From the NCBI GenBank assembly GCA_039815185.1, contig JBCBZT010000029.1:38217-102216 (forward strand): a DNA stretch of 64,000 bases. Reading direction: 5' to 3'. The stretch is from Cyanobacteria bacterium P01_A01_bin.123. GTDB lineage: Bacteria; Cyanobacteriota; Cyanobacteriia; Phormidesmidales; Phormidesmidaceae. A model generated the notes under the pieces. The model saw only the letters and a program-made list of their open reading frames with translations, was not told the DNA's origin and searched no databases. Positions within the stretch are counted from its first letter, which is position 1. Every line of letters begins with the position of its first letter. Below, in pieces: positions 15,807 through 32,579 of this stretch. The translations under genes were made by a program, and so were the position numbers.

Positions 15807-15992
15807 ATCATCTACCGAGAGCGACGAAATATCCAGAATGTATAACCTGGTCGGTGATAACTTGCCAATCGAGACTTAAGCGATCGCAGATTTCCACAAA
15901 CGTCGATTCCTCAGCGGGCCTGCCATTGAAGAATCGACTGATGGTCGATAAGTTTAAATCGACTAATTATTGACCTTTAGCGATCGCGACAT
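15807..15992 (-). pseudogene. Degenerate copy of the N-terminal HTH of the adjacent NB-ARC/WD40 gene
   Basis: MSRSLKVNN* then, after a deletion/frameshift, LSTISRFFNGRPAEESTFVEICDRLSLDWQVITD versus LSTVSRFLNGKSVDFATFVEICDRLSLDWQTITD at 19430-19643. Confidence 0.85.
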
Positions 15993-19000: not shown

Positions 19001-19643
19001 AGAGCCGTTCTAGGGTGGGTTCTAGATCCTGCTGTTGCGAGAGAAAGGGAACTAAGGCTTGAAGCAAGGTCTTGAGGGGGGGCGCGTTGCGTACAGAGCG
19101 CCAGATAACGGCGTCAAAATCGGAGTGAATCGTACGTGCTAGTTTTGCTGCCAGGCTGGTTTTGCCAATACCCCCAATCCCTAAAATGGCAACTAGACGG
19201 CAATTCTCTGTGAGAATTGCGGTTTGTAACTGGGCTAACTCATCCCTGCGTCCGTGGAAAAAGGCGGTGTCAATCGCTTCGCCCCAATCCTGTTGCGGTT
19301 CGTTGGTTTTAGGCTCAGACTTTGATTCAGAGAGAGTTGCTGGGCCGTTGTTAGGCGCAATTGAGGCAGACTGAGAAGCTGGGGGCGATGTTGGTTCTGA
19401 GTCTGCTTGGGCAGCGGTACCCGCTATAAGATCGGTGATAGTTTGCCAATCGAGACTCAAGCGATCGCAGATTTCCACAAACGTCGCGAAGTCAACGGAC
19501 TTGCCATTGAGGAATCGACTCACGGTCGATAGGGCCATATTCAGGTCTTCAGCCAAGGCGCGTTGGCTGCGCAAGCCACACCGCTTGAGGGAAGCTTTCA
19601 CCAGCTCAATGGATTGACTATTGACCTTTAGGGAGCGGGACAT
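16053..19643 (-). CDS. STAND (NLR-like) protein: HTH - NB-ARC/NACHT - pentapeptide - WD40 repeats
   Basis: Xre-like HTH; P-loop GIGGIGKT; Walker B LVILDNVE; ANLREVNLQETNF; about 14 GH...WD repeats. Confidence 0.95.
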   Translation of the reverse strand: MSRSLKVNSQSIELVKASLKRCGLRSQRALAEDLNMALSTVSRFLNGKSVDFATFVEICDRLSLDWQTITDLIAGTAAQADSEPTSPPASQSASIAPNNGPATLSESKSEPKTNEPQQDWGEAIDTAFFHGRRDELAQLQTAILTENCRLVAILGIGGIGKTSLAAKLARTIHSDFDAVIWRSVRNAPPLKTLLQALVPFLSQQQDLEPTLERLFHWLRMRRCLVILDNVETLLESGQSGQYRAGYEDYGTLLRQCGETRHRSCLMITGREKPSEIGRLESEQLLTRSFQLSGSVEAAQAIVQAKGLLGEPEIIKQFCQRYGDNPLAIKIVGTSIQAIFDGDINLFLQENAPIVNDFRRLLDQQFERLSSLEQSILYWLSINREWTTISELLDDIWPVASRANIFEALESLSWRSLIEIKAGQYTQQPVIMEYVTERLIQTVCRELDRLSQRGDLTFLSPLLFCTHALLKITTKDYIRDSQRRMILAPLVQRLQTTLVQPQLISQYMTSILLVLRQLVAGYGVGNFINLCRQLQIDLAGYDFSNLAIWQANLREVNLQETNFSQANFKDCWFNQNFGAITALTLNPDNTLLAAGDFQGNIHLWQVGTYEFLGTISGHPEGITAITFSPDGQYLLTGSGDATLKIWRVSNHQCVQTFQGHRQIVWSVAFSPGGDRIASASFDQTIKLWDVSSGQCWQTLEGHTGAVKAVVFAKKTANILASASFDGSIRLWDWQQGQCTKILEGHPQGIWSIDFGPDDRFLVSGGNDQTIRVWDPQTGHCLNTLSGHQHAVFSVKVSADGKRLASGDYSGLIKLWDLESNLCERALQGHTSWVWPLAFSKDNNLLHTGSQDRTIRIWNPNSGHCLKTLSGYTNTVWSLDFSPDGKILASGSHDGKIRLWDVPQRRCHTILSHDSAIFDISFSPGGDYLASGGGGDQAVVKVWGLDNATLHSTLKGHTSAIRAVAFHPNDNLLLASASDDQTCKLWSIASNNCIKTLTEHENALWSVAFSPDAMYLATGSTDCTVKLWNVETGNCLQTLAQHSDQVLSIAFSPDSRLLASTSSNGEIKLWDVRTGACLKTLVGHTSGVLTGCFSPDESRFVSGAFDGSLKIWDVDTGECCHTIQAHNHILWALAFSPNGKVLASGGEGNTIKLWDTQSWQCVDTLQLPGPYEGMNLIGVTGLSAAQKSSLQALGAISA

Positions 19644-20214
19644 AATCAGTAGAGGACCAGGTAGCTATGACTATATCAACCCAAAAATTGAGGCAGTTTA
19701 CTGATTATGGTCCATCAATAGATTGCATCATATTGATGAATACTATCGATAGTGTGCATGGCAAGCCGTTGCTGATTGAAGGGATGAACCGATTGAGTCG
19801 AAGCTAAAATCAAGAATCGACGCCTCAACCGCGCCTAACGCTTTCAGCATCAATTTCTGTTCAGTATTGCAAAAAATCCTTCCAGGACTTGCAGTTCTGC
19901 TAACTGGGCACTTCAGTCATAAGTCATACGAACTCAGTCATGATCTCGGTTATCAGACTGCTTTGATGAATGTAAACCGCATTTATCGGCACTGCCGCAG
20001 CCTGTTTGTCCTTGCCATGCTGAATGAACTCTGACGCTATATCCAACCAGATTTTCTGCCCTGGCTTGAACTTACTTCTGCCAGCGCCGCGATCGCACCA
20101 ACCAATTAAGAACAGTGCGATTGTATGCTGTCCAAAACGCAAAATATCAAGTCGAGCACTAATTCTTAGTCATCAGTGAGAGGTATTTTGTGATCATTTA
20201 TTACCTAAAAAACC

Positions 20215-20379
20215 ATGAAAGAGCAAAAGAAAACGACTGAACTACTGCAATCTATTGCTGAGGCAGAATAAGCCAAAGTCAACGGTGGAAATAAAGAAGA
20301 CAATACAAAAAAGCGCGGCGGCGGTATGTCGATCAATAACCACAATGAAACGTTACTTAAGAATGAAGCGATCGCGTAA
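20215..20379 (+). pseudogene. Double-glycine leader peptide 1 with NHNETL core, in-frame stop in leader
   Basis: Not in ORF track. MKEQKKTTELLQSIAEAE*AKVNGG|NKEDNTKKRGGGMSINNHNETLLKNEAIA; TAA at 20269-20271 occupies the leader Leu(-7) position. Confidence 0.72.
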
Positions 20380-20717
20380 TTTCGCCAATATCAGGCTCCT
20401 GCATAAGTAGTCATTCTCTAGGATAGACATGCTTTAAATCTTTATGTTCAATACTCATTCAATACCTGCAACATTCATCTTGAAAACACTTGTGGACTCA
20501 CTTCACAAACGGAATAATATCTTAGGCATATTTTGAGCAGTTGACTTGTATTCAATCTCTCGATAGAAGCATAACGAGATGATGGCAAAGATCGCTTGAA
20601 ATAGAGACTGAACTTGCCATTTGTCAAACGCATACTGCTTTATCTACTTGCGCTTAACGATGTTTTTGCCCAGCCAAACAGCGACTCAAGAACAGCTTGA
20701 GCCGCCTTTTTTCATGT

Positions 20718-20872
20718 CTTTTTTGAGAAATTTTTTAATTATTAAAAATCTCAAAAAAAGGAAGAAAATTTTCTTTTCTTCTCGACTTATTCTCGATTAA
20801 AAATTATTATCCTAGTGAAGCTAAAATAGAAAATAAGCGAAACGCTAAAAATGCTTTTTTATTTTCAATTTT
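20718..20872. promoter_or_regulatory. AT-rich control region with two imperfect inverted repeats and an 11-bp direct repeat
   Basis: CTTTTTTGAGA...TCTCAAAAAAAG (20718-20760); TTCTCGACTTA-TTCTCGATTAA (20779-20800); AAAATAGAAAATAA...TTATTTTCAATTTT (20823-20872). Confidence 0.45.
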
Positions 20873-20966
20873 CCTTCAATATTCCGGAATTTAATCATGC
20901 TTTATTGGAGTCAAAGCTGGTACTTAAATATGCCAAGTTAATCTATTGTTAGACAGGAGAAATATA

Positions 20967-21149
20967 ATGCAAGATCGCTATGTCTCAAACAAATCTGATG
21001 CTGCCAAGACCATTGATATTGACAACAAGCAATTGACTCTTCAAGAACTATCTGAAACTCAAATCAGTACGATTTCTGGTGGAGCTGGAGTTGGCATTAA
21101 TCATCGGCTTAGCCTTACCATGACTCACGGCGACGGTTTGGGTTGGTAA
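20967..21149 (+). CDS. Double-glycine leader peptide 2
   Basis: AGGAG RBS; ...LQELSETQISTISGG|AGVGINHRLSLTMTHGDGLGW. Confidence 0.8.
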   Translation: MQDRYVSNKSDAAKTIDIDNKQLTLQELSETQISTISGGAGVGINHRLSLTMTHGDGLGW

Positions 21150-21170
21150 TGATAAGGAGCCAGTAATTTC

Positions 21171-21232
21171 GTAGGGTGGGCAAGCCTATTCCCAGTAGGC
21201 TGTGCAATGGCCAAAATTTTGCTTGCCCACAC
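21171..21232. repeat. REP-like palindrome
   Basis: GTAGGGTGGGCAAGC...GCTTGCCCAC inverted arms. Confidence 0.6.
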
Positions 21233-21710
21233 GATCCTGAATTTGATGAGTATTCGACAATTGTTACTCAATCACATACACCAGCTCCAGGAGAATCTCC
21301 ATTGACAAACCTAGCTCTACCTACTATCGAAGATGCGGTGGGTAATGAGAAGTTTTAGTTAGGCAATAGGGCGATCGCTGAAGATTTTGCTCACCCTAAG
21401 AACCATGAACACCTGCCGCCTAAACCAACCAGAGTTTCTCGGCTGAAACGGTGCTCTTTCCATACAGACAATGTCAATAGGCTTTTCTCTTACTAGAGAG
21501 CCCTACTGCCATTTTGGGGGACTGATACTAGGAGTTAGTTAGCAGTTTCATAACCCAACGAGACCGTTGCCGGTGTTGGCTTATTGCCTCGGTAAGGCTA
21601 GCCAACGTTACCTTAACCCAACCTCTAAGAGTAACGTTTATCCGTTACTCAGCCGATACCCTTTTACTTCGCGACAAAGCTGTTTATTTCAAATATTTGG
21701 AGTCTAAACC

Positions 21711-23807
21711 ATGGCTTACGGATCAGGGACATCAACCAAGAACAATACGCCAACTGGAAGTATTAACGTTGATGCCCTTATGTACAAAAAAAGCTGGGCA
21801 TCTAACGTTGTTAGCTTTAGCTTTACCGATAACTTTAGCAATGACTACGAAGATGATTATGATCTAGACGCTGGTGATGTCTACCAAAACGGTTTCGGAC
21901 AGCTTGTCCCAGCTCAGCAGAGTGCCATGCTTGAATGGATTGAGATGTTTGAAAACGTCTCAGGTCTCGAGTTTGAGCAGAAAACCGGCTCTGAAGATCG
22001 GGATGCAACTATTCGGATCGCTCGCTCAACTTATCCAGCCAATGCTGGTGCTGTTGCTCTTGCAAGTTACCCTGGGAGCTCTTTCAAAGCGGGGGATATC
22101 TGGTTAGATAACGACCAGCTCCTTAACCCAGAGATAGGAAACTTCGACTATTACGTCTTGGGGCACGAACTGGGGCATGCGGTAGGGCTAGTGCATGGCC
22201 ATGAAAAGACTGGGGTTGCAAATATGGCCCTGCTTCCTCAGCATGACTCAATGGAGTTTTCGATTATGACCTACCGCGCCTACATTGGGGATCCCGGAAA
22301 TGGCGTCTCCCTTAGACCCTCGGGATACCCCCAGTCGCTGATGATGCATGACATCAGGGCGCTGCAGGAGATGTATGGGGCCAATTACGATTACAACAGT
22401 TCCGACACAGTCTATAGCTTCTCAACCCTCACGGGCGAGATGTCGATCAACGGCGTGGGTCAAGGGAAACCCATCGACAACCAGATCTTTCGCACGATTT
22501 GGGATGGGGGTGGTATTGATACCTATGATTTCTCTAACTACATCACAAATCTCTCCATTAACCTCCAACCCGGAGAATATGTCGATCTCGATGTGGGAGT
22601 GCACGGAGTCAGCGGCAATTTTCAACGGGCTCAGCTCGACAAGGATGGGTCTGAATATGCCCGGGGACACGTGTTTAATGCCTTAAGTTTCAGTGGTGAA
22701 GATCATAGAGATGAGAAATCACTCATCGAAAATGCCGAGGGTGGATCGGGAAATGATGTTTTTCAGGGTAACAGCGCTGACAATATGCTCTCCGGTAATG
22801 CCGGTAACGATACGATAAACGGCCACTCAGGTAACGACTCACTGTATGGCGATGAAGGTGCCGACGTTATCAACGGTGGAACTGGCGACGATAACATCTA
22901 CGGTGGCAAAGACCCTGACGTGATGGACGGGGGGACGGGCGTTGATACGCTCATCGTATTCGAGCATGCTGGTTATGAGTTGGATATGAATACCGGCAAC
23001 ACCAACGTCCGAGGCGAAGTTGCCCAAAATTTTGAAAACGTTTTAACTGGCCTTGGTAACAATGTGATCATCGGTACCGATACCGATAACATGATCAGCA
23101 CAGGGTCGCATGATGACAAAATTTTTGGGAATGGCGGTAACGACTTTATCGTAGCTGGTGACGGTAACGATTGGGTTGATGGCGGTTTTGGTGATGACTC
23201 CATGGATGGGGGGCCTGGGGTAGACACATTAGACGTTCGCTTCTGGAACGCTGGTTACGAGCTCAATATGAAGACAGGTGTAACCAATTTTGCGGGCGAA
23301 ACGGCTGAGAACTTTGAAAACGTCTACACCGGGGATGGCAATGACGAAATTATTGGTACCTCAGAGGCTAACTTCATCGACGCTGGCGCTGGTAATGACC
23401 GCCTTGAGGGTAAAGACGGGGACGATATTCTGATTGGGGGAGAGGGGGATGACGTTCTCGACGGGGGCGCATTAGATCACCACGGTGAGATTGACTATGT
23501 GACCGGTGGTGGCGGCGCAGATCTCTTTAGCCTGCAGGATGATGGTGATGTTTACAAGGGGCTCACCGTGATCAATGACTTTCATTACTTTGATGGTGAC
23601 ACCATTAGTCTGCCGGGTTTTGGCAAAGATGCCTTTAATGGCAAATTTGAGTTCCAACATGGTTCCTTAGGCATTGCGACTGGCGCTTACCTAGTGACTA
23701 CGGGTGGCAGCGAAGTGGCCTTCTTCCAGTACAACGCTCCCGGTGGTATTGGTTCTGAGGCCGAATTGAATAATTTGTTCAGCGGTATTCTTTCGCCCAT
23801 TGTGTAA
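21711..23807 (+). CDS. M10B serralysin-like zinc metalloprotease with RTX repeats
   Basis: HELGHAVGLVH, Met-turn SIMTY, TIWDGGGIDTYDFS, IENAEGGSGND, many GGxGxD nonapeptides; no signal peptide evident. Confidence 0.95.
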   Translation: MAYGSGTSTKNNTPTGSINVDALMYKKSWASNVVSFSFTDNFSNDYEDDYDLDAGDVYQNGFGQLVPAQQSAMLEWIEMFENVSGLEFEQKTGSEDRDATIRIARSTYPANAGAVALASYPGSSFKAGDIWLDNDQLLNPEIGNFDYYVLGHELGHAVGLVHGHEKTGVANMALLPQHDSMEFSIMTYRAYIGDPGNGVSLRPSGYPQSLMMHDIRALQEMYGANYDYNSSDTVYSFSTLTGEMSINGVGQGKPIDNQIFRTIWDGGGIDTYDFSNYITNLSINLQPGEYVDLDVGVHGVSGNFQRAQLDKDGSEYARGHVFNALSFSGEDHRDEKSLIENAEGGSGNDVFQGNSADNMLSGNAGNDTINGHSGNDSLYGDEGADVINGGTGDDNIYGGKDPDVMDGGTGVDTLIVFEHAGYELDMNTGNTNVRGEVAQNFENVLTGLGNNVIIGTDTDNMISTGSHDDKIFGNGGNDFIVAGDGNDWVDGGFGDDSMDGGPGVDTLDVRFWNAGYELNMKTGVTNFAGETAENFENVYTGDGNDEIIGTSEANFIDAGAGNDRLEGKDGDDILIGGEGDDVLDGGALDHHGEIDYVTGGGGADLFSLQDDGDVYKGLTVINDFHYFDGDTISLPGFGKDAFNGKFEFQHGSLGIATGAYLVTTGGSEVAFFQYNAPGGIGSEAELNNLFSGILSPIV

Positions 23808-23986
23808 CCCAAAGCGAATGATGAGTAGGTTACCCAAAGTGAATCTCCCCCTACAAATATTGGCCCTGCTGACATCGAGGGTGCAGTAAACAACAAGAGA
23901 CTTTGCTTTCGCGATCGGACAATCGATAAGGGCTTTTCTCACCCTAAAAACTTGCTTCAACTGAAAATAGCAAGGAGTTGAAAATC

Positions 23987-24169
23987 ATGAAGCTTCAAAA
24001 CAAATCGACCTCAAAAGAAGCAGCTAAAAGCAGCGATCTTCTCAGCGAGCTGACACCAGAGCAACTCTCTGCAATTGCAGGCGGCGACGGTTGGTGGCGT
24101 CCGGTTGGGAGTGTGCACCTCTCCGACAACCATAACATCACGATGGTCAGTCGTAAAGCAATTCATTGA
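23987..24169 (+). CDS. Double-glycine leader peptide 3
   Basis: AAGGAG RBS; ...LLSELTPEQLSAIAGG|DGWWRPVGSVHLSDNHNITMVSRKAIH. Confidence 0.85.
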   Translation: MKLQNKSTSKEAAKSSDLLSELTPEQLSAIAGGDGWWRPVGSVHLSDNHNITMVSRKAIH

Positions 24170-24247
24170 TCACAAACTGCAGTGGCTGATTCAAAAAATG
24201 CACTTTAAAGTGCCCAATTTTATCTCTTATCTAAAAGGAGAAGCACA

Positions 24248-24469
24248 ATGACACCTTGTCAAAATTCATCAATGAATAGTTTGTCCCAAGCATTAACAGA
24301 AATTCAGTTGGCTCAGATTCGAGGTGGTATCACACTACCTCAGGATCTCAAGTTCCAAGAAAAGCTTGTTGAGGAGGATGTGGGAATAGATCTCTCTGCT
24401 CTAAACAGTCAGAGAGGTAGGGATCATGATCATGCTGTAGATGGGCTAATTTGGCTGAGAACAGTCTAG
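24248..24469 (+). CDS. Double-glycine leader peptide 4
   Basis: AAGGAG RBS; ...SQALTEIQLAQIRGG|ITLPQDLKFQEK...GLIWLRTV. Confidence 0.75.
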   Translation: MTPCQNSSMNSLSQALTEIQLAQIRGGITLPQDLKFQEKLVEEDVGIDLSALNSQRGRDHDHAVDGLIWLRTV

Positions 24470-24648
24470 AAAGCAGCGTGGAATCTGACCTGATCAAAAT
24501 AGCTTCAATTTGATAGGCAGATCGCTTAAAAGTTTCCCGGTGCGTTAGCACCCAAGGAAAGCATCTACCTCATGCTAGGCGGTGCCTTAAAAGCTTCGTC
24601 TAACCCATCTTTGCGACCATTCAAAACAATTGAAATTGAGGAAACCTT

Positions 24649-26790
24649 ATGAACATTCGATCTTCCGGGCACGCTTGGGGCACGCTCGAACCCCAGGTAG
24701 ACGCCCTCGTTAAAGACCTGATGCAACAGCAACACCTGCCCGGTATAACCGTGGCAGTGACCCAACAGGGTCGTTTAATCTTCTCCAAAGGCTATGGCTG
24801 GGCCAATGTTCAAACTAAGCAGGCCATGGAACCTTTCATGAGCAGCCGCATTGGTAGTGTGACCAAAGCTGTCGTTACGGGGCCTGCTGGCTGGCAGCTG
24901 ATGCGGGCAAAGGGCATTAATCCTCAGCAGCAAAAGCTTTATGGGCCAAGTGGTCTATTCAAAAACCGCTTTGCAGAAGATATTGCCCTCAGCTCTGACC
25001 CAAACAAGCATTGGTACGACCAAATCACGCTGCAACACCTCCTAGATCATGCCGCAGGGTTTGTCCGTGAGCCCGATACGAAGGGCGCTGCAGCCATGTT
25101 TACTAATAACAATGCAGCAGCTCTGACCTACGAACAAATCCACAAACACTTTCTCAGAACGAAGAAATTGCTCTTCAAACCAGGGACCCGTATCAACTAT
25201 TCCAACCACGGTTTCGGCCTATGGACGTTGATTATCGAAGCCCTGTCTGGCAAGACTTATCGTGCCTATGCGATAAACAACTATCTGCGATCGCTCGGTC
25301 TCCACGCGGCGGTGCTGCCTGAAAGCACTGAACTCGGCAACCGTCAGGCCTGGAGCCACGTTTACAACGAGCAAGAGAAGCCTGTCTTCATTCAGCCTCA
25401 GAATTCAGGCACGGGTTTAGCAGCGGGTGGATTCCGGGCCTCCGCTCAGGATCTGACCTACATCACGGCTTACCTCGCCGACACCTATGCCGACTCAGAG
25501 CTGAATAAGATGGCTTGGGGAAGAGAGCCCCGCGGCAAGTTAGAACATAATGGCCGGATCCACAATGCCGGAACCGCCTATGTCGCCATGTTTCCAGACG
25601 GTTATACCGCCTCGAATGGTGCCGATCTTAGTCGTATCCATATCGCTGTGGCCACCAACCTCAATATGGACAAGACAGATAATCAGACTGCTTTACTTGA
25701 GTCCCTCTCGACTCAAATTGCGCTTGCGGTTCCTGCGGCGAAGGTTCCGGCAAACTACGCGATTACCCAGTTCCTGCGTCAGGATACCGATTTTGGCGGT
25801 GACTTCAAGGAGGCTAGCCTAGACGGTTCCATTGCCGCGTTTGTCAACGCAGAAGGCAACCTGCAACTGATTCCCTACTTGGTGAATGGACAGGGCACAC
25901 TGACCCGCGGCCAGGTGGTCACCGCCGGGGCCGCCAGTCAAATTAACCTGATTAGGCCCAATAGCAGTGCCGATGCAGTCACGGCTTTTCGCGATGCCGA
26001 TGGCAATCTGAAGACGATCGCGTGGGAGATTTCAAGCATTGGCCAGGTGAGGCGACGCGACGATGCCGTGGCCGGCCCGGTGAAGGCCATCGCCGGAACC
26101 CCCTTCCCCGATGGCAAAGGCGTGATTACACTCACCCGAGGCCTGCAGGATGACTTGAAGTTAATTGCTTGGGAAGTGACCCCCTCGTTTAACATTATCT
26201 GCCGTGGCGATATTGATGCGGGGGCCGTCCGGGATATCGCAGTAACCACAACCCATGCTGACTTCGATGGGGTGGTGAGTGCAACCACTGGGAGCGATCG
26301 CACGCTAAAGCTGATTGCCTGGTCATTTGACTCGACGGCTAAAACCTTCTCTCGTCGAGGCGAGGCCGAGGCCGGTGCTATCAAGGGCGAGTTGAACATT
26401 GTTCGAGCCCAGTTGGGTGGCAAAGACATTGTCGTCACAGCGTTTAGCAACGAAGATGCCAATCTTAAACTGATTACTTGGCAGGTTGACGCCAATGGTC
26501 AGATCAAGCGTAAGGATTCCACCACTGCGGGCTTTGCCAGCATCATCGATCTCACTGCGGCTCAAGGGGGACAGATTATTGCTTCGGTTAAAGACACCGA
26601 CGGCATTCTGCGCATGATTGCTTACAAAGTGCAGAGTAATGGCCAGATCGAGCGGGTCGGCACGGACATTGCGGGTCAGGCCAGCCGACTGGCCTCATCT
26701 CGGGTGAGTCGTAACGGGCGCGAGTTTTTGTTGACCGCCGTGCGTGACGCTGAAAACAAACTGCGGACCATATCGTGGCGACTTGACTAG
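24649..26790 (+). CDS. Serine hydrolase (beta-lactamase/AmpC-like fold) with C-terminal repeat domain
   Basis: RIGSVTK (SxxK), LLDHAAG, YSNHGF (YxN), HNG; C-terminal half has about 7 repeats of the form D/E-G-N-L-K-L-I-A-W. Confidence 0.88.
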   Translation: MNIRSSGHAWGTLEPQVDALVKDLMQQQHLPGITVAVTQQGRLIFSKGYGWANVQTKQAMEPFMSSRIGSVTKAVVTGPAGWQLMRAKGINPQQQKLYGPSGLFKNRFAEDIALSSDPNKHWYDQITLQHLLDHAAGFVREPDTKGAAAMFTNNNAAALTYEQIHKHFLRTKKLLFKPGTRINYSNHGFGLWTLIIEALSGKTYRAYAINNYLRSLGLHAAVLPESTELGNRQAWSHVYNEQEKPVFIQPQNSGTGLAAGGFRASAQDLTYITAYLADTYADSELNKMAWGREPRGKLEHNGRIHNAGTAYVAMFPDGYTASNGADLSRIHIAVATNLNMDKTDNQTALLESLSTQIALAVPAAKVPANYAITQFLRQDTDFGGDFKEASLDGSIAAFVNAEGNLQLIPYLVNGQGTLTRGQVVTAGAASQINLIRPNSSADAVTAFRDADGNLKTIAWEISSIGQVRRRDDAVAGPVKAIAGTPFPDGKGVITLTRGLQDDLKLIAWEVTPSFNIICRGDIDAGAVRDIAVTTTHADFDGVVSATTGSDRTLKLIAWSFDSTAKTFSRRGEAEAGAIKGELNIVRAQLGGKDIVVTAFSNEDANLKLITWQVDANGQIKRKDSTTAGFASIIDLTAAQGGQIIASVKDTDGILRMIAYKVQSNGQIERVGTDIAGQASRLASSRVSRNGREFLLTAVRDAENKLRTISWRLD

Positions 26791-26825
26791 TCTGCCTAAA
26801 TCTCAAGCAACTTGCCGTTGTAATG

Positions 26826-27017
26826 AGAGGCTGTTTGAAAAGTGATTGACTGTACCATTAAGCACTGCATGATCCCCCCTAACCCCCCTTAAAAAAAGGG
26901 GGGAAACAGCCTTTGAGTCCTCCTTTTTTTTGGCGTAGCCTGCCCAGAGGGCTTAGGGGGATTTAGGGGAATCTCAAGCGTTTTGCTACCAAAATCAAGA
27001 CCTTTAAAGCATCCTCT
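26826..27017. mobile_element. MITE-like element with REP-like core
   Basis: Imperfect terminal inverted repeats AGAGGCTGTTTGAAAAG...CCTTTAAAGCATCCTCT around CCCCCTTAAAAAAAGGGGGG palindromes. Confidence 0.65.
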
Positions 27018-27066
27018 GAGCGAATTCTGCATAGAACAGATCTATAGAACCTTGGAGAAGATCGAA

Positions 27067-27243
27067 ATGAAGAACTCACAAATCAAAAATTGCCAACTAA
27101 AACTGAACTCGGAGATGAATCCATCAAGCCTTTTCGCTGAAGTTCTAGACCGAGAAGCGAGCACGATCAGCGGAGGTTTATTGCCATTACTCCGGACTCA
27201 GGCAGTTCTCACAATTACAGAAAACGAACCTGATCCTAATTAA
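27067..27243 (+). CDS. Double-glycine leader peptide 5
   Basis: GGAG RBS; ...LFAEVLDREASTISGG|LLPLLRTQAVLTITENEPDPN. Confidence 0.72.
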   Translation: MKNSQIKNCQLKLNSEMNPSSLFAEVLDREASTISGGLLPLLRTQAVLTITENEPDPN

Positions 27244-27284
27244 GGATAGTAGGGATCTTTGTAACATGGGTAAGCCCATTTCTA

Positions 27285-27416
27285 AGACCTCTGGGCAGAC
27301 TACACAAGAATAAGGGGGGCAAGTCCTATCCCAGTCGGGATAGCCCCCTTTGCAAGGGGGCGGCGACAGCGGGGGATCTTCAATATCTGTAGTTGCACTT
27401 CTGAGATTTGGGATTA
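27285..27416. repeat. MITE/REP-like repeat, boundary copy 1 (others at 29510-29702 and 31835-31990)
   Basis: Shared CCTATCCCAGT.GG.ATAGCCCCCTTTGCAAGGGGGCGGC.ACAGCGGGGGATC. Confidence 0.8.
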
Positions 27417-27639
27417 GCTTTCAATGAAAGCATACGTTTAATTCAAATAAGTAGATTGCCGCAAATAAAACAAGCACTTGTAGGTTGTGGTTGAGGAACG
27501 TAGCTTGCTTCCCGCAGGGTAAGCCAACGCCCGCATGGGTTATGCTATCGCTTTTCTGGGATGCGCCTTGGGCTATACCCATCCTACAAATATATAAGGC
27601 GACCTACTTAATTAGTGATGCGATCGCCTTTGAAAAGTT

Positions 27640-27683
27640 GACACAAAGTCAAGACAAACTCAGCACAAAGTCAGGACAAGTTT
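27640..27683 (+). promoter_or_regulatory. Four 11-bp direct repeats upstream of RTX gene 1
   Basis: GACACAAAGTC-AAGACAAACTC-AGCACAAAGTC-AGGACAAGTTT; identical at 29867-29910. Confidence 0.6.
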
Positions 27684-27780
27684 AATCTGAAATTCAACGC
27701 ATTATTTGTGATGATAAAAGAGCGTTGATCCATCAGCTAAATCTTACTATTTCAACACTTTAACCACGGTTTACAGTGCT

Positions 27781-27950
27781 TATACCAGTTCTCCAGAACT
27801 TGGCTGCGCTTAGAAGCTGGGCAGATCCCCCCTTCCCCCCTTGCAAAGGGGGGCAAGTCCCATCTCAATTGGAATAGCCCTTTTTTTAAGGGGGCGGCGA
27901 TCGCGGGGGATCGTCAGCATCCATCGCCGCACTTCTGAGATTTGGTATTA
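27781..27950. mobile_element. MITE-like element (second copy at 30008-30175)
   Basis: Termini TATACCAGTTCTC...GAGATTTGGTATTA enclosing CCCCCTTGCAAAGGGGGG palindromes. Confidence 0.7.
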
Positions 27951-28163
27951 CTTCAAGATCCCACAAACGGCTTTAGCGCTAACAAAACTGTGCACGTTTT
28001 AAGGAGCATGAAATCCCAGCGCTGATCGACACCTGTCGTGCATAAACCATCGCTCTCCCATTTGACGGATTGAAGCGATGGGGGTGACTTCTCTACCAGC
28101 AGCTTAACCACAAGGCTAATGGCCTTCAATAACTATCCCAAAAATTTTCCAAGGAGCAGACCC

Positions 28164-29441
28164 ATGACTATTCTTCTAGCCCACATGCCACCCAACCCTA
28201 TGGATGAGCAAGATGTTTTCGTTCCACTCTTTGCTGACCCTATCGTCAACCTTATCGATGAGCAGCGTGTTCTAAATCCATTCTTCTCTGTCCCTGTCGT
28301 GGCTAACCATGAGGCAAAGTTTGAGATGCCATCGGACGATTTGCCTCTGGGATTATCTGGTGAGCAAAACGACCTTGTTTGGGAAAAAAGACCGCTCAAC
28401 GGTGGCGGGCTTCCCGTCTTTGACCCCGGCATCGCTGATAAAACGCTGATCTTAGGGACGAGTGACGCTGAATATATCCCCGGTTCCCCCGATGACGATG
28501 AAATCCATGGGTATGGGGGCGGCGACTCCATTTTGGGTGGCGACGGCAACGATACCATTTTTGGTGGTGAGGGGGGTGATGCACTTTATGGTAACGAGGG
28601 CAACGACATCCTAGAGGGCGGTCAAGGCGATGACAACCTTTATGGTGAGGAAGGCGATGACTTGCTGAGCGGTGGCGAGGGCGGTGACGACATTTTTGGT
28701 GGCGTAGGCCATGACAACCTTTATGGTGGTGAGGGCGATGACTACCTTTCTGGTAGCGAGGGTGATGATGAAATTTACGGTCAGGGGGGTGATGACGAAC
28801 TTTTTGGTGGCGAGGACGATGACGACCTTTACGGTGGCGAGGGCGATGATGACCTTTACGGTCAGGGGGGCGATGACGAACTTTATGGCGGCGAGGGCGA
28901 TGACTTCCTGAGCGGTGGCGTTGGCAATAACAACCTTTTTGGTGGTGATGGCGATGACGAACTTTATGCTGGCGATGGCAATAACAATCTTTACGGTGGC
29001 GATGGCGATGACGAACTTTACGGTTCTGGTACCCTCTACGGCGAAGACGGCAATGACGACCTTATCGGTCTTGGAGGGACGGCTGATTTGTTGGTTGGTG
29101 GCACTGGGATTGATCGCTATAACGGACTAGGAGGGGGCGATACCTATCAGTCCTTTGCAGACAATGCCCAGGATACGTTTGTAGTCCGTAACTATGGTGA
29201 CAACAACCCCGTTGATATCCACGGCTTCCAACTGATGAATGATCCAGCCGATACCACTCACGACATCATTGAGCTGGATCTCAATAACGACTTTTACATC
29301 ATCGAGCACGTCAACACGTTCGGCGTCGCAGACCAAACCGACACCCTGATCAAAAGTTCTTCAACTACCGATGTGTTAGCGGTATTGGTCGATGTGGAGA
29401 TACCCATTCTGCAAGACAACCCCTACATCAATATGGTCTAG
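28164..29441 (+). CDS. RTX Ca2+-binding repeat protein 1
   Basis: More than 20 GGxGxDxLx nonapeptides; ATG after AAGGAG at 28164 (the upstream ATG frame is closed in the paralogue). Confidence 0.92.
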   Translation: MTILLAHMPPNPMDEQDVFVPLFADPIVNLIDEQRVLNPFFSVPVVANHEAKFEMPSDDLPLGLSGEQNDLVWEKRPLNGGGLPVFDPGIADKTLILGTSDAEYIPGSPDDDEIHGYGGGDSILGGDGNDTIFGGEGGDALYGNEGNDILEGGQGDDNLYGEEGDDLLSGGEGGDDIFGGVGHDNLYGGEGDDYLSGSEGDDEIYGQGGDDELFGGEDDDDLYGGEGDDDLYGQGGDDELYGGEGDDFLSGGVGNNNLFGGDGDDELYAGDGNNNLYGGDGDDELYGSGTLYGEDGNDDLIGLGGTADLLVGGTGIDRYNGLGGGDTYQSFADNAQDTFVVRNYGDNNPVDIHGFQLMNDPADTTHDIIELDLNNDFYIIEHVNTFGVADQTDTLIKSSSTTDVLAVLVDVEIPILQDNPYINMV

Positions 29442-29866
29442 TCATTGATTTAACCGTCCCCTGAGCGGAGTCGAAGGGGACATTCTGGCTGAGGTATTGC
29501 CTCCGGTAAGATCGATTCTTCAAAACTGGACTATGTTTAGCAGCTAGCGAGATCTCCCCTTCCCCCCTAAGCTCTGTGGGCAGGCTACGCCAAGAAAAAG
29601 GGGGGCAACCCCTATCCCAGTTGGAATAGCCCCCTTTGCAAGGGGGCGGCAACAGCGGGGGATCTTCAATCTCTGTAGTTGCATTTCTGAGATTTAGTAT
29701 TAAACCGCGTCCACATCCAGATCCATGGTTTTTCCTTTGCAGGGGCGAGAGGCCCCTCGCCCCGACGCCAGGTTTCAAATCGGATGTGGTTTAGCTCTCA
29801 ATGAAAGCACATGTTTACTTCAAATAATTAGTGATTAATTAGTGATGCGATCGCTTTTGATAAGCT

Positions 29867-29910
29867 GACACAAAGTCAAGACAAACTCAGCACAAAGTCA
29901 GGACAAGTTT
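29867..29910 (+). promoter_or_regulatory. Four 11-bp direct repeats upstream of RTX gene 2
   Basis: Exact copy of 27640-27683. Confidence 0.6.
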
Positions 29911-30385
29911 AATCTGAAATTCAACGCATTCTTTGTGATGATAAAAGAGCGTTGATTCATCAGTTTAATCTCATTATTGAAACAATTTGACCACGATTTA
30001 CAGTGCCTATATAGTTCTCCAGAACTTGGCTACGCTTAGAAGCTGGGCAGATCCCCCCTTCCCCCTTGCAAAGGGGGGCAACCCCTATCCCGATTGGAAT
30101 AGCCCCCTTTGCAAGGGGGCGGTGACAGCGGGGGATCGTCAGCATCCATCGCCGCACTTCTGAGATTTGGTATTACTTCAAGGTCTCATAAACGGCTTTA
30201 GCGTTAACAGAACTGTGCATGTTTTAAGGAGCTGAAATCATAGCGCTGATCGACACCTGTCGTGCATAAACCATCGCTCTCCCTTTTAATGAATTGCAGC
30301 GATGGGGTGCCTTCTCTACCAGCAGCTTAACCCCAAGGCTGATGGCCTTAAATAACTATCCCAAAAGTTTCTAAGGAGCAAATCT

Positions 30386-31615
30386 ATGACTATTCTTCTA
30401 ACCCCCATCACACGAAGACCGATGGATGAGCAGGATGTTTTCGTTTCACTCGTTGCTGACCCTATCGTCAACCCTATGGATGAGCAGCGTGTTCTAAATC
30501 CACTCTTTGCTGCCCCTGTTGTTGCTAACCATGAGACAAAGTTTGAGCTGCCAGCGGACGATTCCCCCTTGGGATTGTCTGGTGAGCAAAACGACCTTCT
30601 TTTGAAGAAGGAACCAGTCAAAGGTGGCGGGCTTCCCATCTTTGACCCCAACAACGATGTTGCCACTCTGATTTTAGGCACTAGTGGCGATGACTTTATC
30701 CCTGGTTCCTCCGGTGACGATGAAATCCATGGGTATGAGGGAGACGATGACCTCTTCGGTGTGGCCGGAAACGATACGATTTTTGGTGGCGAAGGCAATG
30801 ATGACATTTACGGTGGCGAGGGCGATGACATCGTAGAGGGAGGCCAAGGCAATGACGATATTGCCGGTGACGAAGGTAATGACATCCTTCGGGGTGGCGA
30901 AGGCGATGACCACGTTTACGGTGACGATGGCAATGACGTCATTAGAGGTGGCGAGGGCAATGACAACCTTTACGGTAATGATGGCAATGACGACCTGAGA
31001 GGTGGTGCAGGCAATGACAGGCTCTATGGTGGCAATGGCGGCGATGACTATCTTGAGGGTGGCGATGGCGATGACTACCTTGACGCTGGTGGCAATGGCA
31101 ATAATGAAGCTTACGGTGGCGCTGGTAATGACGAGATTTACGGTTCTGGCACGCTCTATGGTGGCACTGGCAATGATTACTTGTTCGCCTATGAACATAA
31201 CACCACCCTCCACGGCGAAGATGGCAATGACACCCTGATCGGGTCTTCTTCTGGGGCTGATTTGCTAGTCGGCGGCACTGGGGCTGACCGCTACGACGGG
31301 AAAGGGGGGGGCGACATTTACGAGTCCACCGCAGATGGTGCCCAGGATACGTTTGTAGTCCGTAACTATGGTGACGGCAACCCCGTTGATATTCACGGCT
31401 TCCAGCTGATGAATGATCCAGCCGATACCACCCACGACATCCTTGAGCTGGACCTCGGCTTAGATTATTACATCATCGAGCACATCAACACGGTCGGCGT
31501 CGCAGACCAAACCGACACCCTGATCAAAAGTTCGTCTTCTGGCGATGCGTTAGCGATATTGGTAGATGTGGAGATACCAATTCTGCCAAACAACCCCTAC
31601 ATCAATATGGTCTAG
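30386..31615 (+). CDS. RTX Ca2+-binding repeat protein 2 (tandem paralogue)
   Basis: GGxGxD repeats; N- and C-termini closely similar to 28164-29441 (e.g. DIHGFQLMNDPADTTHDI, NPYINMV). Confidence 0.92.
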   Translation: MTILLTPITRRPMDEQDVFVSLVADPIVNPMDEQRVLNPLFAAPVVANHETKFELPADDSPLGLSGEQNDLLLKKEPVKGGGLPIFDPNNDVATLILGTSGDDFIPGSSGDDEIHGYEGDDDLFGVAGNDTIFGGEGNDDIYGGEGDDIVEGGQGNDDIAGDEGNDILRGGEGDDHVYGDDGNDVIRGGEGNDNLYGNDGNDDLRGGAGNDRLYGGNGGDDYLEGGDGDDYLDAGGNGNNEAYGGAGNDEIYGSGTLYGGTGNDYLFAYEHNTTLHGEDGNDTLIGSSSGADLLVGGTGADRYDGKGGGDIYESTADGAQDTFVVRNYGDGNPVDIHGFQLMNDPADTTHDILELDLGLDYYIIEHINTVGVADQTDTLIKSSSSGDALAILVDVEIPILPNNPYINMV

Positions 31616-32043
31616 TCGTCAGTTGGGTCGGCGCTGACAATAAGTAGGTTGTCCTAATTATGTTTCAGATACCGAGGCCCCTTCCGTCCCCCAATACTGG
31701 GGGAGACTAGACTTAAAGCCCGCAGTATTCGGGGTTTGGAGGCTTGTACGAGGAAGCAAAACATCTGATCTTCTATCTCATAAACGATTACGCTAACCCA
31801 CTTAACGGTTTGGTTGAGGTATTGCCTCCGGTAAGACCGCTTCTTCAAAACTGGACTACGTTTAGCAGCTAGCAAGATCCCCCCTTCCCTCCCAAGCCCT
31901 GTGGGCAGGCTACGCCAAGAAAAAAGGAGGCAAGTCCCATCCCAGTTGGAATAGCTTCCTTTGCAAGGGGGCAGCGACATCGGGAGATCTTCTGATTGGG
32001 CATCCCTACGACGGATAGTCATTGCAAATGTCACTGAATAACC

Positions 32044-32579
32044 ATGAATTCTGTTTTAGACTCTTCGCTTCAGTTTGCTGAAATTGAGAAACTGCAATTA
32101 CAGCAACGCTATGCCGATGCAGAAATACTCTGCAATCAACTGCTAGAAAAACTCTCCTCTGAGCCAATTGATCTAGCCGTTCAGCTCAGACTTCATAGCT
32201 ATCTATTCACCAGCTTAGAAGCCCAAGCTCGCTACCCCGAAGCCCAAAATCAACTAGAGGTTGCACAAAGTATCTTGAGTGCGTTAGAGCAAGTTACCCC
32301 GCTCAGATTTCGCGTAAATCGTACCAACTCCATCTAGACCTGCTCGGCCCAGACCATGGGCAAACCGTTGCCGATGGAGCAGCGCTAGCGGCGATTCTAC
32401 ATGGGTTGAGCCAATGGGATGAGGCAGTTCCACACTTTGAGACTGCTATCGCCTCTGGGCCAGGCGGTCATCAGTGCGCCCTGCGTCCTGGGATGACGGG
32501 CCGCGCTGACATCGTGACCCATGAAAAAACGGTACTCACATTTTTGTTGCGGAAGGCCAAACGTCTGACCGATTTGTGA
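32044..32579 (+). pseudogene. Frameshifted TPR gene joined to the last ~36 codons of an HlyD-family adaptor
   Basis: Frame 1 TPR helices (QARYPEAQNQLEVAQ); second frame YQLHLDLLGPDHGQTVADGAALAAILHGLSQWDEAVPHFETAIA continues in frame into QCALRPGMTGRADIVTHEKTVLTFLLRKAKRLTDL*. Confidence 0.75.

Follow-up and report, generated by a model that had tools for sequence, protein, structure and literature searches.

The locus described here raises two questions: whether an array of small double-glycine (GG) peptides, interleaved with genes for secreted proteins, forms one intact system with the regulatory gene that it faces, and what the peptides are for. It lies in a 64,000-nucleotide stretch of DNA from Cyanobacteria bacterium P01_A01_bin.123 (contig JBCBZT010000029.1, positions 38,217 to 102,216), termed the window, to which all positions refer unless another contig is named. 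Five peptide precursors, a serralysin-like protease, a serine hydrolase and two RTX-repeat proteins are encoded divergently from a STAND protein with helix-turn-helix (HTH), NB-ARC and WD40 domains. The first-pass annotation gave the order of these genes, placed everything from 20215 to 32579 on the plus strand, and labeled the proteins as a serralysin-RTX protease, a serine hydrolase, two RTX proteins and an HTH-STAND-WD40 protein; the order is reproduced and the labels stand, the hydrolase having a beta-lactamase fold. The locus is a decaying composite rather than an intact system. Our preferred reading, held with moderate confidence, is that it is a decaying GG peptide export cassette behind a promoter that is likely STAND-controlled, whose cores would be secreted unmodified, the motif-copying ones likely serving as molecular mimics. 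Besides the heme-peroxidase motif copied here, sister arrays hold copies of motifs from at least four further unrelated families, which makes a secreted library of such mimics likely in these bacteria.

The cores are pieced together from short modules, some of which are copies of conserved motifs found in Hcp, DUF1559 pilins, GH9 cellulases, PsaB and heme peroxidases. In Pfam, the core of peptide 4 aligns with positions 380-404 of the An_peroxidase model (E=0.0095), and in a PDB search all 11 of its matches are myeloperoxidases or eosinophil peroxidases (best E=0.34). Covering 22 of the 530 positions of the heme-peroxidase model, it is the copy of a motif rather than an enzyme. The motif is retained in full-length relatives with 86% and 78% identity, and it is kept in the relatives designated P0002, P0003 and P0014. 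The last of these is a distant GG peptide from a search of 1.84 billion representatives, which gave four matches, including one unrelated repeat protein and one match to the leader only. Peptide 4 and P0014 are identical at 11 of 15 positions inside the motif and at 2 of 18 before it, the C-terminus of P0014 coincides exactly with the motif end, and a PDB search with P0014 gave 11 matches, all lactoperoxidases. In peptide 4, then, the motif is kept by selection. No donor gene was found in the source genome (G000), whose own peroxidase does not match, and no longer relatives of the core were found at E<=10.

Sister arrays contain motifs of Hcp. A profile built from four cores has eight PDB matches, three named Hcp1, one unrelated, and four that we take to be Hcp from the aligned sequence. 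A second profile, built from two further cores, has four matches on the adjacent stretch of Hcp, so that the two N-terminal profiles match adjacent residues 4-18 and 17-30. In one peptide the N-terminal patch is spliced to one from the C-terminal part of Hcp (Pfam Hcp 113-127, E=0.11). All three separate patches are conserved across genomes. A full Hcp was found in none of the five genomes searched, among them G014 and G072, which hold relatives of the locus, and in 1 of 301 genomes across the phylum.

Other families are represented by single cores. A peptide encoded 5' of the C39 exporter gene has 17 residues identical to a DUF1559-type prepilin, and the viral-contig matches to the DUF1559-like pattern are DUF1559-type prepilins in eight of eight cases; an atlas search with this peptide gave leads that were all below 0.9. 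A core from G014 matches GH9 cellulases (Pfam E=5e-4; 17 of 17 PDB matches GH9), and a core from genome G119 matches the cluster-binding loop of PsaB (Pfam E=4e-4; PsaB in the best 60 of 168 matches). A CAP-like core with a single match (E=0.11) is retained as a lead. Peptide 5 scored 3.3 bits against a Calx-beta strand, and none of 500 shuffles scored as high in this targeted test; a Calx-beta origin was set aside as weak. Over the whole set, 3 of 59 cores reached Pfam E<0.01, versus none of the 136 control stretches (p=0.027 in a one-sided Fisher test), where the 59 cores include orthologues and are not independent, and the queries for PDB were chosen by eye or after the Pfam result.

That dependence weighs against the mimicry reading, and so do several other points. 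A donor family is demonstrated for one of the five window cores, most of the 59 cores match nothing, and many are basic and Gly/Arg-rich, resembling ordinary cyanobacterial GG peptides. Relatives of peptide 4 are few, comprising three near clusters (itself included) and one distant peptide, and none was found in metagenome contigs. A single Hcp-like core matched nothing in PDB or plasmids, the DUF1559-like core matched nothing in plasmids, and searches gave no support to guesses that certain cores are kinase-like or EF-Tu-like. Because detection is biased to conserved motifs, the remaining cores may stem from unrecognized variable regions. As for the regulatory part of the reading, the hydrolase is missing from G014 although peptides are present, and in genome G183 no STAND gene lies within 12 kb of the hydrolase.

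The peptides themselves have the marks of exported precursors. Peptides 2-5 carry GG leaders and AGGAG/GGAG-type ribosome-binding sites (RBSs), and peptide 1 has no RBS. The earlier count of four clear RBSs agrees with this; peptide 1, counted there among five peptides with GG leaders, is broken by an in-frame TAA at 20269-20271, inside the leader. Contigs from runs X2 and X4 carry the same stop, and of these X4 is a different strain with other changes near peptide 1, so peptide 1 is a real pseudogene. Most of peptide 3 is gone in strain X4, and the corresponding joint (23842-24137) is found in runs X4 and X2. The cores were also described as dissimilar and free of Cys: all five lack Cys, but peptides 1 and 3 have the motif NHN-x-T in common. 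A leader matrix applied to the 8.09-Mb genome gave 24 matches, nine of which were seed sequences; four are here, 18 are on contig C70 and two weak ones are elsewhere.

The peptide 2 orthologue in G014 is 75% identical and in the same position, and the proportions of nonsynonymous and synonymous differences (pN and pS) in its core are 0.11 and 0.36. In eight of nine orthologous core pairs pN is below pS, by uncorrected counts over 15-34 codons. In L016, a locus of G072, the position of peptide 5 is also occupied by a peptide. The prediction that these are true GG-leader precursors for a C39/HlyD exporter is borne out by the pN and pS values and by G014 and G072, where both exporter genes are kept. 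Peptides 2-5 fall below the cut-offs of the curated CTB, NHLP, Nif11 and CCRG-2 models, with nothing beyond weak CCRG-2 (16.5 vs 24 bits) and plantaricin matches for peptide 3. Elsewhere in the source genome (G000:C19:31879, C56:41884 and C92:56780), GG leaders are joined to an acidic core that is repeated, and one of these peptides adjoins the NHLP-type exporter on C92.

The exporter has been lost from the window. The TPR::HlyD scar that had been noticed at the 3' end of the array consists of residues 1-90 and then 203-250 of the TPR protein, fused in frame to the final 40 residues of HlyD. It marks the loss of the TPR gene, the C39 exporter and most of HlyD. An identical scar is contiguous in strain X4, and the X2 and X4 contigs rule out assembly error as the source of the scar and of the peptide 1 stop. 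The short-type C39-ABC exporter is carried by 45 of 173 genomes of the order, and is present in G014, G072, G045 and G181. No orthologue was found in the source genome at E<=1e-200, and no exporter is encoded on contig C70. Two C39-domain transporters are encoded elsewhere in the genome, and the catalytic Cys and His are kept in the one on contig C92, not in the one on contig C128.

Relatives show the cassette before this loss. In G014, a STAND gene with 85% DNA identity to that of the window faces the orthologues of peptides 2 and 1 together with more than 12 further GG peptides, the short-type C39-ABC gene and HlyD. L016, which is contig G072:C89, contains the STAND gene, a peptide 1 orthologue, the serine hydrolase, a broken TPR gene, C39, HlyD and further peptides. 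A metagenome scan with the C39 gene gave eight loci, one of them a duplicate of L016.

Several unassigned or neighboring genes were seen in these arrays. A 654-amino-acid protein with no Pfam or NCBIfam match is encoded inside the G014 peptide array (L011:8168-10132, minus strand); its Asp-rich motifs are, to our eye, reminiscent of terpene synthases. In L016 (7598-8236, minus strand), a 212-amino-acid protein without a family match is encoded with a Cys-rich GG peptide on one side and the serine hydrolase on the other. The region 3' of the G014 array (L013:101-6836) has six Nif11-like GG precursors, a halogenase-like gene and an amine-oxidase-like gene. In L179, L180 and L182, GG peptides with a short common hydrophobic core lie beside AraC-type regulators and C39; those of L182 adjoin a PatG-like protease, and one is extended by a PsaB motif.

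With its exporter deleted, its TPR gene broken, peptide 1 broken in three samples and peptide 3 lost in one strain, the array could be a dead relic in this strain, exporting no peptide and leaving only the STAND-hydrolase pair and the RTX and serralysin genes at work. We regard this as unlikely, though as a possibility to be taken seriously. Peptides 2, 4 and 5 have kept their frames, RBSs and GG motifs. Without a local exporter they would need the one on C92; its catalytic residues, and the 18 leader matches on C70, which are likewise without a local exporter, make export in trans plausible. The decay is also limited to this strain, and the relatives are unaffected.

Much of the export machinery belongs to a known type. 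Group III cyanobacterial bacteriocin-type clusters are described by Wang, Fewer and Sivonen (2011, PMC3140520) as combining a short C39-ABC gene, HlyD and arrays of GG precursors. The present locus resembles them in its GG leader, its dense arrays of diverse cores and its frequent truncations, and the window's relatives have the short-type C39 and HlyD. It differs in that the exporter is deleted in the window, that cores copy foreign motifs, and that a divergent STAND regulator with a conserved putative operator is present. The GG precursor array is found in the window, but C39-ABC and HlyD are not; because they are gone, the window falls outside the definition of a group III cluster. Five motif strings do not occur in five supplement files of PMC3140520, whose precursor table is possibly outside those files. 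Likewise, no papers on motif-copying cores, NHNET peptides or the STAND-hydrolase pair were found in a search that left subscription journals largely outside. The export chassis is already known, and the motif-copying cargo was not found in the literature searched.

A further alternative is that these are ordinary matrix or antimicrobial GG peptides, and that scraps of foreign sequence are raw material for sticky or amphipathic cores in which motif identity is irrelevant. The model would be EbfG1-4 of Synechococcus elongatus, diverse unmodified GG peptides that are required for biofilm, and whose mature forms are reported to have no known domains (PMC4997328). The EbfG1-4/PteB system and the present one share GG peptides that are, or here would be, unmodified and matured by a C39 transporter, and a cyanobacterial host; they differ in that cores here match known families. 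Module-swapping mosaics that mostly match nothing would suit this alternative. However, the identity of peptide 4 and P0014 is concentrated in the motif at which P0014 ends, and three separate Hcp patches are retained across genomes. We therefore consider it rather improbable.

Peptides 1 and 3 are of the NHNET type, which was found in 5 of 173 genomes. On C70, G075 and G076, NHNET peptides are directly 5' of the same TPR gene (66-67% identity), and these clusters hold LanM; C70 of the source genome also encodes two iron-redox (HDO-type) enzymes and an ATP-grasp protein. This arrangement suggests that NHNET peptides might give rise to modified peptides: the TPR protein would hold the precursors while the iron-redox, ATP-grasp or LanM enzymes of C70 tailor them in trans. 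Such tailoring would account for peptides 1 and 3 only. No tailoring gene was seen in the window locus or in L016 (LanM, YcaO and radical SAM genes were sought by eye in the window among nearly all open reading frames of at least 120 amino acids), and the NHNET peptide of G014 has no recognizable TPR gene. The proposal is accordingly doubtful, and we give it little credence. The C70 cluster (G000:C70:2500-49000, loci L094-L096) has three HTH-NB-ARC-WD40 genes facing many GG peptides. It also encodes NHNET polyproteins with up to 481 amino acids of repeats, and a GRAS-domain protein with a GG/NHNET N-terminus.

The STAND protein has an N-terminal DNA-binding domain, an NB-ARC domain with Walker A at 155 and Walker B at 224, and a repeat sensor, and its gene lies next to a conserved phased element, the predicted operator, as expected of a STAND transcription activator. 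Its orthologues are 64-86% identical. Ten orthologous loci with at least 1.5 kb of upstream DNA were compared (window, G014, G072, L017, G185, G061, G063, G060, G077 and G186); L014 and L020 were excluded from the count because their upstream DNA is too short. A 46-bp element with four repeats spaced 10-12 bp apart is common to the intergenic regions of all ten. An operator matrix trained without the source genome scores 60.5 bits at 19908, and the next site in the genome scores 18.8. Upstream of distant homologues the matrix reaches at most 4 bits, but four distant homologues of that HTH type do show related phased cores. This element is likely the STAND operator, a prediction modeled on MalT/AfsR-type regulators. 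Its phased repeats fit oligomeric binding, as in STAND activators. The earlier proposal that the STAND protein controls the divergent side is therefore likely, although binding is here inferred from the conserved element.

A second conserved element (19666-19680) is located 22-36 bp 5' of the STAND start at most orthologous loci, and a broken remnant of a second XRE HTH is just downstream of the STAND gene (15850-15992, minus strand). Another such remnant, at G000:C113:15015, has a phased array some 2 kb from it. Phased repeat arrays also occur at G000:C82:68039 and 68277, 5' of another STAND-type gene, which suggests that they are general for this regulator class.

The gene most constantly facing the STAND gene is the serine hydrolase. 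It is present on the divergent side in 8 of the 10 orthologous loci; GG peptides are present in four, and serralysin or RTX genes in one, the window. In a tree of 14 STAND proteins (midpoint root, with three distant homologues as outgroup and one fork open), the earliest branches are G063 and G061, loci with the hydrolase only, and the peptide loci fall inside the remainder. The synteny and the basal position of hydrolase-only loci indicate that the serine hydrolase is the ancestral STAND partner. Among 53 STAND loci with at least 3 kb upstream, peptides are found in one (L016, a close orthologue), and downstream in 0 of 61. Within the source genome, 4 of 10 close STAND paralogues face GG peptides, namely the window gene and three on C70. 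These counts do not support the first-pass idea of one conserved STAND, peptide and RTX system. That the WD40 propellers sense a peptide of the locus in quorum-like fashion, switching on peptides, protease and RTX genes together, is very improbable: peptides lie directly behind the operator in four of the ten loci, the three other STAND genes on C70 face GG arrays and peptide 2 keeps its place in G014, but six of the ten loci, basal ones included, lack peptides in the interval from the STAND gene to the hydrolase, none of the 50 distant homologues (at least 3 kb upstream) faces GG peptides, and the RTX arrays are unlike the operator.

The hydrolase has the catalytic motifs of the wider serine-hydrolase fold and scores 55 bits against the class C beta-lactamase model, for which the curated cut-off is 415. 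Its structure model is confident solely for residues 385-713, which resemble seven-blade propellers. Judged against MalT, GutR and AfsR, which PMC13581612 names as non-immune STANDs, and against cyanobacterial Apaf-1-like WD40 STANDs, the window protein is similar in having a DNA-binding domain, an NB-ARC ATPase and a repeat sensor. It differs in its combination of an N-terminal XRE HTH with a WD40 sensor, and in having a propeller-tailed serine hydrolase as its likely target.

The serralysin and RTX genes are additions of this lineage, and no serralysin gene was seen at the other nine orthologous loci. The protease has HExxHxxGxxH at 152, a Met-turn at 184 and RTX repeats; it scores 172.9 bits against the serralysin family NF035945 (curated cut-off 500) and is hence called serralysin-like only. 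RTX1 and RTX2 are a tandem duplicate with a period of about 2.2 kb. Against the RTX hemolysin model the score is about 142 bits (cut-off 1000), with matches confined to the repeats. The phased array 5' of RTX1 has a lag-11 identity of 25/33 (null share 0.0007) and is duplicated 5' of RTX2, and a pattern drawn post hoc picked out these two arrays and nothing else in the genome. Shared STAND control of the RTX genes was rejected as unsupported: the unit matrix from other genomes scores 5.5 bits on the arrays, outside the top 110, versus 35-39 for the operator. The arrays are likely the site of another regulator.

Table 1. Features of the locus, in window positions.
Feature	Position	Strand	Basis or remark
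XRE-type HTH - NB-ARC - WD40 (STAND) protein, 1196 aa	16053..19643	-	Pfam HTH_3/HTH_26, NB-ARC, WD40
Predicted STAND operator, 46 bp, four phased repeats 10-12 bp apart	19908..19953	+	10/10 orthologous intergenic regions
Peptide 1, pseudogene of an NHNET-type GG precursor (TAA in leader)	20215..20379	+	Open orthologue frames in G014, L016/G072
Peptide 2, intact GG precursor, 21-aa core	20967..21149	+	Orthologue in G014
Serralysin-like M10 metalloprotease carrying RTX repeats, inserted in this lineage	21711..23807	+	Pfam, zinc motif, Met-turn
Peptide 3, GG precursor, NHNIT variant of NHNET motif	23987..24169	+	Present/absent among strains
Peptide 4, GG precursor, core 24383-24427 a copy of heme-peroxidase signature motif	24248..24469	+	Pfam, PDB
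Serine hydrolase, beta-lactamase fold (SxxK, YxN, HxG), C-terminal beta-propeller	24649..26790	+	Motifs, model, synteny
Peptide 5, intact GG precursor	27067..27243	+	Weak Calx-beta-strand resemblance
11-bp phased repeat array 5' of RTX1, likely site of another regulator	27640..27685	+	Lag-11 identity
RTX-repeat protein 1	28164..29441	+	RBS prefers start 28164 over 28119
Phased array duplicate 5' of RTX2	29867..29912	+	Repeat comparison
RTX-repeat protein 2	30386..31615	+	Pfam; tandem duplicate
Deletion scar: two TPR-gene pieces and last 40 codons of hlyD	32044..32579	+	C39-ABC gene lost

A palindromic repeat of about 110 bp, common in the genome and its relatives, has window copies at 26870-26960, 27305-27416, 27839-27950, 29591-29702, 30064-30175 and 31916-32027. 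These repeats may have mediated the RTX duplication and the deletions. Predicted sigma-70 promoters and terminators at the locus were not in excess over shuffled sequence.

The reading of the locus as a decaying, likely STAND-controlled export cassette can be set out as a series of steps. The STAND protein would bind the four phased repeats, whose conservation is observed, and on meeting its ligand would turn on the divergent genes. As synteny and the tree show, its ancestral target is the serine hydrolase, and the cassette of peptides, TPR, C39 and HlyD joined the switch in one sub-lineage. In relatives, where the genes are present, cleavage and export of the peptides would fall to the short-type C39-ABC and HlyD, as in other peptidase-containing ATP-binding cassette transporter (PCAT) systems. 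Motif copying and selection suggest that the cores engage readers or assemblers of those motifs, and motif-copying cores likely interfere with, or signal to, whatever reads or assembles them in neighboring cells. In the present strain, where exporter and TPR gene are deleted and peptide 1 is broken, peptides 2, 4 and 5 would exit solely via the NHLP-type exporter on C92. The serralysin and duplicated RTX genes would be later passengers, likely exported by a HlyB-type system on C128.

More speculatively, mat-dwelling cyanobacteria might maintain an updatable library of secreted "pattern peptides", in which a constant leader is joined to captured motifs of neighbors' weapons, enzymes and photosystems, for use as decoys or alarm signals. 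We think this unlikely, and offer it as a conjecture. Receptors that read such motifs may include adjacent NLR-like HTH-NB-ARC-WD40 proteins, which would make the arrangement a bacterial counterpart of danger-peptide signaling. In plant immunity, peptides of the SCOOP/MIK2 type mimic conserved microbial patterns. By analogy only, the peptides described here are likewise short, predicted to be secreted and similar to conserved internal motifs of other proteins; unlike SCOOP/MIK2 they are bacterial and would be PCAT-exported.

Cyanobacterial GG peptides have been classified by the hundred as precursors of bacteriocins, with "variable cores" to which no function is assigned. If some of these cores are indeed selected copies of hallmark motifs, then each core names a candidate target, and the proposal could be tested with short synthetic peptides. 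Motif copying would extend to peroxidases, cellulases and photosystem I beside Hcp and pilins. Separately, with the phased element and the serine hydrolase, an operator and a target gene can for the first time be proposed for the HTH-NB-ARC-WD40 proteins, which in filamentous cyanobacteria are abundant and unstudied.

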